IMG/VR virus record: IMGVR_UViG_2690316321_000004
Length of the DNA stretch: 4,243 nt
Origin: a virus
Lineage: Duplodnaviria > Heunggongvirae > Uroviricota > Caudoviricetes
Direction: 5' to 3' (one strand)
Below the pieces are notes generated by a model. That model had not been told where the DNA came from. It made no database searches and saw only the letters and a list, made by a program, of their open reading frames with translations. This document shows, one piece after another, positions 624-4,022 of the stretch (the first letter of the stretch is position 1; every line of letters begins with the position of its first letter). A program made the position numbers and the translations under genes.

Positions 624-3600
624 ATGGGTAAAGGCAGCAGTAAGGGGCATACCCCGCGCGAAGCGAAGGACAACCTGAAATCCACGCAGTTACTGAGTGT
701 GATTGATGCCATCAGCGAAGGGCCGATTGAAGGTCCGGTGGATGGATTAAAAAGCGTGCTGCTGAACAGTACACCGGTGCTGGTCAGTGAGGGGAATACC
801 AATATCTCCGGCGTCACGGTGGTGTTCCGGGCCGGTGAGCAGGAGCAGACTCCGCCGGAGGGATTTGAATCCTCCGGTTCCGAGACGGTGCTGGGTACGG
901 AAGTGAAATATGACACGCCGATTACCCGGACCATCACGTCTGCAAACATCGACCGTCTGCGCCTGACCTTCGGTGTGCAGGCACTGGTGGAAACCACCTC
1001 AAAGGGGGACCGGAATCCATCGGAAGTCCGCCTGCTGGTTCAGATACAACGTAACGGTGGCTGGGTGACGGAAAAAGACATCACCATTAAGGGCAAAACC
1101 ACCTCGCAGTATCTGGCCTCGGTGGTGGTGGGTAACCTGCCGCCGCGCCCGTTTAATATCCGGATGCGCAGGATGACGCCGGACAGCACCACAGACCAGC
1201 TGCAGAACAAAACGCTCTGGTCGTCATACACCGAAATCATCGATGTGAAACAGTGCTACCCGAACACGGCACTGGTCGGCGTGCAGGTGGACTCGGAGCA
1301 GTTCGGCAGCCAGCAGGTGAGCCGTAATTATCATCTTCGCGGACGCATTCTGCAGGTGCCGTCGAACTATAACCCGCAGACGCGGCAATACAGCGGTATC
1401 TGGGACGGAACGTTTAAGCCAGCATACAGCAACAACATGGCCTGGTGTCTGTGGGATATGCTGACCCATCCGCGCTACGGCATGGGGAAACGTCTTGGTG
1501 CGGCGGATGTGGACAAATGGGCGCTGTATGTCATCGGCCAGCATTGCGAGCAGTCGGTGCCGGACGGCTTTGGCGGCACGGAGCCGCGCATCACCTGTAA
1601 TGCGTACCTGACCACACAGTGCAAGGCGTGGGATGTGCTCAGTGATTTCTGCTCGGCGATGCGCTGTATGCCGGTATGGAACGGGCAGACGCTGACGTTC
1701 GTGCAGGACCGAGCGTCGGATAAGGTGTGGACCTATAACCGCAGTAATGTGGTTATGCCGGATGATGGCGCGCCGTTCCGCTACAGCTTCAGCGCCCTGA
1801 AAGACCGCCATAATGCCGTTGAGGTGAACTGGATTGACCCGAATAACGGCTGGGAGACGGCGACAGAGCTTGTGGAGGACACGCAGGCCATTGCCCGTTA
1901 CGATCGTAACGTCACGAAGATGGATGCTTTTGGCTGTACCAGCCGGGGGCAGGCACACCGCGCCGGGCTGTGGCTGATTAAAACGGAGCTGCTGGAAACG
2001 CAGACCGTGGACTTCAGCGTGGGCGCAGAAGGGCTTCGCCATGTACCGGGCGATGTCATTGAAATCTGCGATGATGACTATGCGGGCATCAGCACCGGCG
2101 GGCGCGTGCTGGCGGTGAACAGCCAGACGCGGACACTGACGCTCGACCGTGAAATCACGCTGCCAGCCTCCGGCACCACGCTGATAAGCCTGGTTGACGG
2201 GCAGGGGAGTCCGGTCAGCGTGGAGGTTCAGTCCGTCACCGACGGCGTGAAGGTAAAAGTGAGCCGGGTTCCTGACGGTGTTGCTGAATACAGCGTGTGG
2301 GGGCTTAAGCTGCCGACGCTGCGCCAGCGCCTGTTCCGCTGCGTGAGTATCCGTGAGAACGACGACGGCACGTATGCCATCACTGCCGTGCAGCATGTGC
2401 CGGAGAAAGAGGCCATCGTGGATAACGGGGCGCACTTTGACGGTGACCAGAGCGGCACGGTGAATGGTGTCACGCCGCCAGCAGTGCAGCATCTGACCGC
2501 CGAAGTCACTGCAGACAGCGGGGAATATCAGGTGCTGGCGCGATGGGACACGCCGAAGGTGGTGAAGGGTGTGAGCTTTATGCTTCGCCTGACTGTGGCA
2601 GCAGACGACGGCAGTGAGCGGCTGGTCAGCACGGCCCGGACGACGGAAACCACATACCGCTTCACGCAACTGGCGCTGGGAAACTACAGGCTGACAGTCC
2701 GGGCGGCAAATGCCTGGGGGCAGCAGGGCGATCCGGCATCGGTATCGTTCCGGATTGCCGCACCGGCAGCACCGTCGCGGATTGAGCTGACGCCGGGCTA
2801 TTTTCAGATAACCGCAACGCCGCATCTTGCCGTTTATGATCCGACGGTACAGTTTGAGTTCTGGTTCTCGGAAAAGCGGATTGCGGGTATCAGGCAGGTT
2901 GAAACCACAGCCCGCTATCTTGGCACGGCGCTGTACTGGATAGCCGCCAGTATCAATATCAAACCGGGCCATGATTATTATTTTTATATCCGCAGTGTGA
3001 ACACTGTTGGCAAATCGGCATTTGTGGAGGCTGTCGGTCGGGCGAGCGATGATGCGGAAGGTTACCTGGATTTTTTCAAAGGCCAGATAACCGAATCCCA
3101 TCTCGGCAAGGAGCTGCTGGAAAAAGTCGAGCTGACGGAGGATAACGCCAGCAAACTGGAGGAGTTTTCGAAAGAGTGGAAAGACGCCAACGATAAATGG
3201 AATGCCATGTGGGGCGTCAAAATTGAGCAGACCAAAGACGGCAAACATTATGTCGCGGGTATTGGCCTCAGCATGGAGGACACGGAGGAAGGCAAGCTGA
3301 GCCAGTTTCTGGTTGCTGCTAACCGTATCGCGTTTATTGACCCGGCAAACGGGAATGAAACGCCGATGTTTGTGGCGCAGGGCAACCAGATATTCATGAA
3401 CGACGTGTTCCTGAAGCGCCTGACGGCCCCCACCATTACCAGCGGTGGCAGTCCTCCGGTATTTTCCCTGACATCAGACGGAAAGCTGACCGCTAAAAAT
3501 GCGGATATCAGTGGCAGTGTGAATGCGAACGCCGGGACGCTCAACAACGTCACGATAAATGAGAACTGTCAGATTAAGGGGAGACTGTCAGCCAACCAGA

Positions 3601-4022
3601 TTGAAGGCGATATTGTCAAAACGGTCAGCAAGTCTTTCCCCCGAACGAGCACTTATGCCAGCGGCACCATCACGGTAAGAATCAGTGATGATCAGAAATT
3701 TGACCGGCAGGTCATGATACCGCCAGTGTTATTCCGCGGTGGTAAGCATGAGAATTTCAACAGTAATAACCAACAGTCATACTGGTATTCAACCTGCCGG
3801 TTAAGAGTGACCCGCAATGGTCAGGAGATTTTTAATCAGTCCACGACGGATGTTCAGGGCGTATTTTCCTCAGTTATAGATATGCCTGCCGGACAGGGGA
3901 CGCTGACACTGACATTCACCGTATCTTCATCAGGAGCGAATGACTGGACACCAACAACCAGTATCAGCGATCTGCTGGTTGTGGTGATGAAAAAATCCAC
4001 AGCAGGTATCAGTATCAGCTGA
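624..4022 (+). CDS. J: Tail tip attachment / host specificity protein J (central tail fibre, lambda gpJ family), complete, 1132 aa
   Basis: Uninterrupted 3399-nt ORF. The N-terminus [53 protein letters not shown] is recognisably that of lambda J. The length matches lambda J at 1132 aa (figure recalled from memory). Position is downstream of I and upstream of lom. The central region has fibronectin-III-like segments. The C-terminal ~150 aa appear divergent from lambda J as I recall it. Confidence 0.95.

Follow-up and report, generated by a model that had tools for sequence, protein, structure and literature searches.

Where does the C-terminal receptor-binding end of the J protein encoded at this locus come from, and which porin does it recognize? 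The window, i.e., the whole stretch of 4,243 nucleotides analysed here (IMG/VR record IMGVR_UViG_2690316321_000004, Caudoviricetes), had earlier been interpreted from its letters alone. This sequence-only reading described a J gene that is lambda-like over most of its length and ends in a divergent, AT-richer module starting near nt 3550, and it proposed a recombinational swap or a diversification of receptor specificity, for example to a different porin. The analysis reported here indicates that the tip of the window J is very probably the OmpC-binding allele carried by phage phi330 and the A8 chimera, recombined onto a J body of the lambda/434 type.

Layout of the locus and of gene J

All features described here lie on the + strand. 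The window opens with the 3' part of gene I (tail tip assembly; 1..563, read in the frame of nt 3, stop codon at 561-563), which matches the Pfam family Lambda_tail_I (PF06805, E=6e-16) and is 94% identical in nucleotides to I of lambda and 434. Alignment with I of lambda and 434 revealed no indel, although, relative to lambda, the annotated lengths differ (190 vs 223 aa) because the start-codon annotation differs. Gene J (624..4022), recognized by its open reading frame, Pfam architecture and identity to lambda J, encodes a tip attachment or central tail fibre protein of 1132 aa. It matches the Pfam families FNIII-A_GpJ, Phage-tail_3, Ig_J, Ig_J_second, Phage_Tail_Tip and Ig_GpJ_C (PF24801, PF13550, PF24421, PF24489, PF09327 and PF12421), all far over their cut-offs and in the order seen in lambda. 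The window J has the full lambda-type gpJ architecture, consisting of the hub, two FNIII/Ig domains, the tail-tip fibre and a C-terminal receptor-binding domain. The Ig-like receptor-binding domain proper spans aa 1009-1132 (3648..4019) and scores 124.7 bits against PF12421, for which the cut-off is 26.2. The gap downstream of J holds an intrinsic terminator (4040..4069) with the stem GGGCGTCA / TGACGCCT followed by a T-run, and the start of lom (Ail/Lom outer membrane protein; 4089..4243, PF06316 Ail_Lom, E=4e-23) then exits the window. Gene J thus sits between the I fragment and lom, with synteny as in lambda, 434 and 4A7; lom also lies downstream of J in phi330.

Mosaic structure of J and mapping of the crossovers

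A three-way protein alignment of the window J with those of lambda and 434, read in blocks of 30 aa, shows 87-100% identity up to aa 960, 77-83% over aa 961-990 and only 27-53% from aa 991 to the end. Over aa 120-975 the identity is 96.6% to lambda and 97.4% to 434, and over aa 976-1132 it is 43.2% and 43.0%, respectively. A lambda-like body with a divergent C-terminus, as claimed earlier, is therefore what the alignment reveals (about 97% to about aa 975, then 43% over the last 157 aa). Identity above 95% to lambda J over the C-terminal 150 aa had been named as the outcome that would speak against divergence, and the alignment gives 43% instead. The short motifs pointed out in the same reading (DMPAG, LTFT and KK..GIS) stand as conserved islands in the three-way alignment, and aa 999-1132 alone still match the lambda gpJ chains 8xcj and 8iyk with E ~1e-22. 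The lambda receptor-binding domain (PDB identifiers 8xcj, 8xck and 8iyk; PMC11101478) belongs to the same PF12421 family, is Ig-like and ends a trimeric beta-prism. While the lambda body is 97% identical to that of the window, its module is 43% identical, its receptor is LamB rather than OmpC, and the two modules differ by indels in the receptor loops (lambda 1007-1012 and 1048-1049). The window module is not the lambda LamB-binding allele, given the 43% identity and the indels at loop positions. Nor is it the 434-type OmpC-binding allele, since 434, which likewise has a lambda-type body (97%), carries a separate module that is 43% identical to that of the window.

The module does find a close match in phi330 (Stx2a phage vB_EcoS_phi330, Pankowvirus, PV189401; PMC12502783), which has the same tip on a different J body (~71-75%). 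The last 170 aa of the window J are identical to phi330 J at 166 positions (97.6%), with differences at A970, R987, V1077 and D1107. In nucleotides, 300-nt blocks of the J body are 92-100% identical to lambda, 434 and 4A7 and 56-83% to phi330, whereas 60-nt blocks of the module are 97-100% identical to phi330 and 35-67% to lambda and 434. Body and module are thus discordant, the former being 97% like lambda, 434 and 4A7 and the latter 98% like phi330.

The same module is found in the A8 chimera (Brodel et al., Nature 2024, PMC11338833; PDB identifiers 9wca, closed, and 9wcb, open with OmpC), in which the C-terminal allele is joined to a lambda J body. Residues 999-1132 of the window J are 97% identical (130/134) to the chain 'A8 gpJ 713' of 9wca. 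Over aa 958-1132 the identity to A8 is 96%, with six differing positions, A970, R987, S1009, T1010, V1077 and D1107 of the window being S, K, N, S, A and N in A8. The 3' end of the A8 DNA, taken from the supplement of PMC11338833, aligns to 3363-4022 of the window; this supplementary DNA had lost letters in machine reading (94% identity, 14 gaps included), and the exact residue differences were taken from the PDB chain.

The discordance resolves into two mapped crossovers. Up to 3494 the window departs from phi330 at closely spaced positions, with few mismatches beyond this point, and mismatches to 434 start at 3531; between these two positions lie 36 nt (3495..3530, aa 958-969, 12 aa) that are identical in the window, 434 and phi330 and form the 5' crossover interval. 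At the nucleotide level, the actual boundary thus falls a little upstream of the module start that had been placed near nt 3550. Relative to 434, the 3' crossover falls at ~nt 4056, within the J-lom terminator, with mismatches dense to 4055 and sparse thereafter. Accordingly, J can be divided into a lambda/434-type body (624..3494), delimited by nucleotide identity and dS and comprising the hub domains, the two FNIII/Ig domains, the helical shaft and most of the central straight fibre, and an exchanged receptor-binding module of the A8/phi330 allele (3531..4022), delimited by nucleotide and amino acid identity to phi330 and A8 and comprising the distal central straight fibre and the receptor-binding domain. 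The conserved stretch that holds the natural crossover of the window also contains the graft point of A8.

Could a lambda-like, LamB-binding tip instead have turned into the module in place, under rapid diversifying selection and without DNA exchange? Positive selection is known to act on the receptor-binding loops of J (PMC6646904), and dN of the module between the window and lambda is high (0.51), as such a history would have it. However, synonymous sites tell against it. Between the window and lambda, the body has a dS of 0.16 and the module one of ~2.6, i.e., saturated, while between the window and phi330 it is 0.76-1.8 in the far more distant body and just 0.048 in the module. Faster protein evolution in place cannot account for such a reciprocal pattern, nor do the sharp transitions at 3495-3530 and ~4056 fit it. 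The dS comparison refutes divergence in place under positive selection, and we give that history virtually no credence. The proposed swap of the receptor-binding module is borne out by the discordant identities, the reciprocal dS and the mapped crossovers. It has been described previously that J residues 960-1132 form an independently recombining module (Maddamsetti et al. 2018, PMC6646904), and the window J qualifies as carrying a specificity region of this type, with discordant relatedness of module and body and a breakpoint at aa 958-969.

Based on these patterns, homologous recombination very probably put the A8/phi330 allele on a J body of the lambda/434 type, with crossovers in two conserved flanks, namely the 12-aa stretch at 3495-3530 and either the J end or the region of the J-lom terminator.

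Base composition along J

A break in composition had also been offered as a sign of the swap, and this claim fared only partly well. The module (3549-4019) is indeed AT-richer than early J (47.6% GC vs 60.0% over nt 624-2798; chi-square p=8e-7), so that a GC profile does show a significant shift toward the 3' end of the gene, but the shift is not located at the module boundary. A single change-point fits J best at nt 2798..2799 (about aa 725, between the two Ig/FNIII domains; log-likelihood ratio 15.3, chi-square p=1.4e-4), where GC falls from 0.60 to 0.50-0.52. This point is in DNA that is 95-97% identical to lambda, and the same point is found in lambda and 434. The step at the module boundary itself, from 52.0% over the preceding 750 nt to 47.6%, is not significant (p=0.15), and a second change-point in J reaches a log-likelihood ratio of only 1.4. 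Because the main change-point lies in conserved DNA shared with lambda and 434, the GC shift is no evidence for a swap, and composition was ruled out as an argument for it.

The contrast between 47.6% GC in the module and 60% over the initial 2.2 kb of J might otherwise be taken as the mark of a recent import of the module from a phage whose host is a different one with lower GC. We consider such an origin highly improbable in view of the non-significant boundary step and of a main break that lies 750 nt upstream in conserved DNA common to lambda and 434. Moreover, the window module is only modestly AT-richer than the lambda module (54.8% GC, p=0.03), and the modules of other E. coli lambdoid phages are equal to it in GC (46.7-50.3%; for example, 434 48.2%, phi330 47.3% and phage 21 46.7%). 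The module is also at home in E. coli, being present at an identity of at least 95% in ~1,500 of 20,395 complete E. coli genome records (5,426 genomes).

Receptor specificity of the exchanged tip

The module shares at least 95% amino acid identity with two proteins, those of phi330 and A8, whose OmpC dependence has been shown experimentally. No plaques of phi330 form on the Keio ompC deletion and complementation restores plaquing, while the other 53 outer-membrane-protein knock-outs tested are lysed (PMC12502783). Likewise, supplying OmpC enables A8, but not wild-type lambda gpJ, to deliver DNA into MG1655 lacking lamB and ompC (PMC11338833). Binding is also indicated by the PDB entry 9wcb, which is titled 'Open state of A8 gpJ 713 central tail fiber with OmpC G17 from E. 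coli EDL933' and holds three chains each of A8 gpJ and OmpC; 9wca too contains three chains of the 97%-identical fragment. The solved A8-OmpC complex was released in 2026, and a literature search found no paper describing 9wca/9wcb. OmpC dependence and binding come from the literature and PDB entries on these 97-98% identical proteins, and we infer the same behaviour for the window variant. Judged by this identity, the tip of the window J almost certainly binds OmpC rather than LamB, and the earlier suggestion of a changed specificity to another porin gains support from the OmpC use of phi330 and A8. By analogy, the window J would form a homotrimer and bind a trimeric porin through its C-terminal domains.

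The nearest distinct allele is the phage 21 / 4A7-type module (80-81% amino acid identity, dS 1.5), which has the same long hairpin and C-terminal 20 aa as the window. Phage 21 (J: OL657228) has been reported to use LamB natively and to use OmpC only after the mutation I1025T in J (PMC11336670); thus, receptor use is labile in this module clade. We therefore rejected an assignment from clade membership alone, and the receptor is assigned here only from phi330 and A8. The example of phage 21, whose J has an 80%-identical module and is reported to gain OmpC through one mutation, raises the question of whether LamB remains a receptor of the window module, either as the sole one or alongside OmpC. 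The window also keeps the long hairpin of phage 21 (16 aa) and the ancestral residues I997-V998 (3612..3617), which correspond, after a check of the numbering, to I1025-V1026 of phage 21 J on the trimer axis just above the receptor-binding domain. Such retention of LamB nevertheless appears unlikely, since the 98%-identical phi330 module has no need of LamB, the ompC deletion being the sole Keio outer-membrane-protein mutant tested that phi330 does not lyse, since A8 is functional in cells deleted for lamB and its function varies with the OmpC variant supplied, and since the window module is 20% different from that of phage 21, with a dS of 1.5. OmpC is also the receptor of 434 J (cited in PMC11101478 and PMC12502783), and loop sequences and predicted contacts differ between phi330 and 434 (PMC12502783). 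As the 434 and window modules are 43% identical, OmpC binding occurs in two distinct alleles.

The analogy of lambda gpJ-LamB, together with the 9wcb title, gives a picture of how the tip may engage OmpC. The segment 3531-4022 encodes the distal tip of the trimeric central fibre J, i.e., the last beta-prism turns and the Ig-like receptor-binding domain, and loops at the base of the three receptor-binding domains may insert into or grip the OmpC trimer. OmpC binding would then spread the domain bases, and the movement would perhaps travel up the fibre, open the tail tip and lead to ejection of the DNA. Two hairpins are candidates for contacts with OmpC in the AlphaFold3 model of the phi330 paper (PMC12502783), which is a prediction. 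One is E1043-S1052 (3750..3779, 10 aa), identical to E953-S962 of phi330 and predicted to point into the OmpC barrel, and the other is A1105-P1110 (ANDWTP, 3936..3953), predicted to contact the barrel rim. Our single-sequence AlphaFold2 prediction of aa 958-1132 was of low confidence (pLDDT 55.8, pTM 0.50); a Foldseek search with this model ranked 9wca, 9wcb, 8xcj and 8xck at the top, a result that is partly sequence-driven and carries little weight.

Residue 1107 in the second hairpin is D in the window but N in phi330, A8 and JNE181771. It aligns with lambda J 1107, and the loop at window 1009/1010 aligns with lambda 1012/1013; in lambda J, 1012/1013 and 1107 are hypervariable sites that control receptor choice (PMC6646904). 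The accepted OmpC variants are known to differ between A8 and the related 1A2 chimera (PMC11338833). Owing to D1107, V1077 and, compared with A8, S1009/T1010, and to the alignment of 1009/1010 and 1107 with the lambda sites, there is a slight chance that the window variant accepts other OmpC alleles than phi330 and A8, or a second porin. If so, it would be a natural case of fine-tuning inside one allele.

A J variant with an OmpC-binding tip on a lambda-like body is common, already known and well studied, and the window adds little new knowledge in this respect, the last ~170 residues of J having been recognized in 2018 as a host-range cassette that recombines independently. The allele with its known OmpC receptor has already been used to retarget lambda particles for gut gene delivery. 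A8 was engineered on an Ur-lambda J body, whereas the window J is a natural mosaic and hence its natural counterpart, i.e., the engineered design copies a combination that nature already makes. A prophage with the window J should adsorb through OmpC, and would thereby escape down-regulation of lamB/mal and be sensitive to OmpC variation or loss. At an identity of at least 95%, the module also occurs in 48 phage records, and the exact protein sequence of aa 988-1132 is found in E. coli O157:H16 Res13-Lact-PEA12-26.

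Gene layout and divergence of the J tip

The window comprises the 3' end of the tail assembly gene I (up to nt 563), a complete gene J (624-4022; 1132 aa), an intrinsic terminator between J and lom (hairpin GGGCGTCA-GAAA-TGACGCCT at 4040-4059 plus a T-run, together 4040-4069) and the start only of lom (from 4089). The full set of lambda gpJ domains was identified in the window J by Pfam, and the protein is closed by PF12421 ('Tip attachment protein J, C-terminal receptor binding domain'; aa 1009-1132) with a score of 124.7 bits against a cut-off of 26.2. The window and other relatives have a single 1132-aa ORF, whereas the record of PhiR29_2 lists two overlapping 'J' CDSs (2122-5518) and that of the Stx2a phage vB_EcoS_phi330 (hereafter phi330) lists a 1042-aa J with a small ORF ahead of it (1058-4473); these split or truncated CDSs are probably sequencing or annotation frameshifts.

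Alignment of the window J with the LamB-binding J of lambda (NC_001416) and the OmpC-binding J of phage 434 (OL657226) gave 87-100% identity per 30-residue block through aa 960, 77-83% at aa 961-990 and 27-53% thereafter. Over aa 120-975 the window J is 96.6% identical to lambda and 97.4% to 434, as against 43.2% and 43.0%, respectively, over aa 976-1132, and the lambda and 434 modules, with 36% identity, are equally far apart from each other. The divergent tip claimed in a sequence-only reading of this DNA is therefore real and limited to the C-terminal module, where identity to lambda and 434 falls from ~97% to ~43%, and the islands named in that reading (DMPAG, LTFT and KK..GIS) are indeed conserved between the window and lambda/434 tips.

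Recombinational exchange of the receptor-binding module

The body of the window J (624-3494) is 97% like that of lambda, 434 and 4A7, whereas phi330 is 98% identical to the window in the module (3531-4022) and only 71% in the body. Nei-Gojobori estimates of dS are likewise reciprocal, being 0.16-0.17 in the body and ~2.6 (saturated) in the module against lambda, and 0.76-1.8 in the body and 0.048 in the module against phi330. Fast evolution of the tip in place is rejected by this reversal of the body/module pattern between the two phages. Mapped from mismatches at individual sites, the 5' crossover lies at nt 3495-3530, a 36-nt stretch coding for aa 958-969 in which the window does not differ from 434 or phi330, and the 3' crossover relative to 434 lies at ~nt 4056, inside the J-lom terminator. 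Since similarity to 434 resumes within the hairpin, the hairpin region may provide the cassette with its 3' flank for recombination. The window J also fits the description of J residues 960-1132 as an independently recombining 'specificity region' with characteristic indels at lambda 1012, 1048-1049, 1077-1078 and 1107 (Maddamsetti et al. 2018, PMC6646904). Thus, the discordant body and module identities, the reciprocal dS and the mapped crossovers uphold the earlier proposal that the receptor-binding module was swapped by recombination.

The accompanying claim of a shift towards AT is only partly borne out. The module is AT-richer than early J (47.6% GC against 60.0% in the first 2175 nt; p=8e-7), but the step at the module edge is not significant (52.0% in the 750 nt upstream vs 47.6%; chi-square p=0.15). 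The best GC change-point in J lies at nt 2798 (~aa 725), at the junction of two Ig/FNIII domains, where GC falls from 0.60 to 0.52 and GC3 from 0.73 to 0.62 (p=1.4e-4). The DNA around this position shares 95-97% identity with lambda, and the change-point recurs in lambda and 434; it may be the relic of an earlier mosaic junction that lambda-type J genes have in common. The window module is somewhat AT-richer than that of lambda (47.6% vs 54.8% GC; p=0.03) and similar to those of 434, phi330, phage 21 and WGPS2 (46.7-50.3%). Because the main break falls in conserved DNA and the edge step is not significant, composition is no marker of the edge of the divergent module, and the composition argument for a swap is weak.

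A second exchangeable block was observed upstream of the receptor-binding domain, at ~3024-3500. The J genes of phage 21 (OL657228) and Stx2 phage 1717 are 92-98% identical to the window in nucleotides at 2844-3023 and only 52-68% at 3084-3323, where lambda, 434 and 4A7 hold 90-100%; thus, the helical-shaft/straight-fibre segment also occurs in distinct alleles.

Receptor assignment and proposed mechanism

Three independent lines point to OmpC as the likely receptor of the window module. Firstly, the last 170 residues of phi330 J match the window at 166 positions, and of the 54 tested Keio strains that each lack an outer-membrane protein, phi330 lysed 53 and failed on the ompC deletion, where ompC complementation brought back plaquing (PMC12502783). 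Secondly, among lambda gpJ chimeras made with C-terminal parts of natural gpJ variants by Brodel et al., chimera A8, the sequence of which (supplement of PMC11338833) aligns to window 3363-4022, delivered DNA into an MG1655 lamB/ompC double deletion supplied with plasmid-borne OmpC, whereas wild-type lambda gpJ did not (PMC11338833). Thirdly, PDB entry 9wcb combines A8 gpJ with OmpC, three chains of each, under the title 'Open state of A8 gpJ 713 central tail fiber with OmpC G17 from E. coli EDL933'; in 9wca, the closed state, the 'A8 gpJ 713' chain (9wca_J) is identical to window aa 999-1132 at 130 of 134 positions. The suggested switch to a different porin is thus very probably correct, as judged from modules 97-98% identical to that of the window.

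Receptor use is labile within the clade of the window module. For the module of phage 21, which shares 80% identity with that of the window, LamB is reported as the native receptor, with OmpC use acquired through I1025T (PMC11336670; the published I1025/V1026 numbering agrees with OL657228), and the related 1A2 chimera, with a WGPS2-type module, takes EDL933 OmpC and not MG1655 OmpC (PMC11338833). The OmpC assignment therefore rests on the 97-98% identity and not on clade membership.

Both phi330 and A8 differ from the window at 970, 987, 1077 and 1107, and A8 also at 1009 and 1010. Window aa 1009/1010 (3648-3653) align with lambda 1012/1013, and aa 1107 (3942-3944) with lambda 1107, sites reported as critical, hypervariable in nature and required for the OmpF gain of function of lambda (PMC6646904). 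Substitutions at these few loop positions might shift the set of OmpC variants that the window tip accepts.

By analogy with lambda gpJ-LamB structures (PMC11101478) and with A8 in its closed (9wca) and open (9wcb) states, the bottom loops of the three Ig-like domains would face the porin trimer, and porin binding would spread the bases of these domains. The spread would be transmitted up the β-prism and helical shaft, releasing the FNIII strings, upon which the tail tip would open for DNA ejection. An AlphaFold3 model of phi330 predicts hairpin E953-S962 inside the OmpC barrel and A1015-P1020 on its rim (PMC12502783); the equivalent window segments, E1043-S1052 and A1105-P1110, are identical and differ at one position, respectively. 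AlphaFold2 run on the single sequence gave a poor model (pLDDT 55.8), and the top Foldseek ranks of this model (9wca, 9wcb, 8xcj and 8xck) added little beyond the sequence matches.

Allele identity and prevalence

The window tip is a common allele, already characterised, engineered and solved structurally, and the swap reading is itself already known. In phage and complete E. coli genome collections, the closest match to the whole window was E. coli JNE181771 at 97.7%, with none higher, whereas the module alone is matched at 99.8-100%; the window thus combines common segments in a mosaic of its own. In translated searches, J tips fall into discrete alleles by identity to the window module: the window type (~97-99%), phage 21/4A7 (~80%), Stx2 phage 1717 (~76%), WGPS2 (~61%), 434-type (~45%) and lambda (~43.5%). 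Many long-tailed Stx1a and Stx2a phages share the 473-nt module region with an identity of at least 98%; matches at this level include YYZ-2008, CP-1639, 2H10, Turner, PhiR29_2 and phi330. Among 20,395 records of complete E. coli genomes (5,426 genomes), ~1,500 carry the module at an identity of at least 95%, and in E. coli O157:H16 Res13-Lact-PEA12-26 a prophage encodes aa 988-1132 exactly as in the window.
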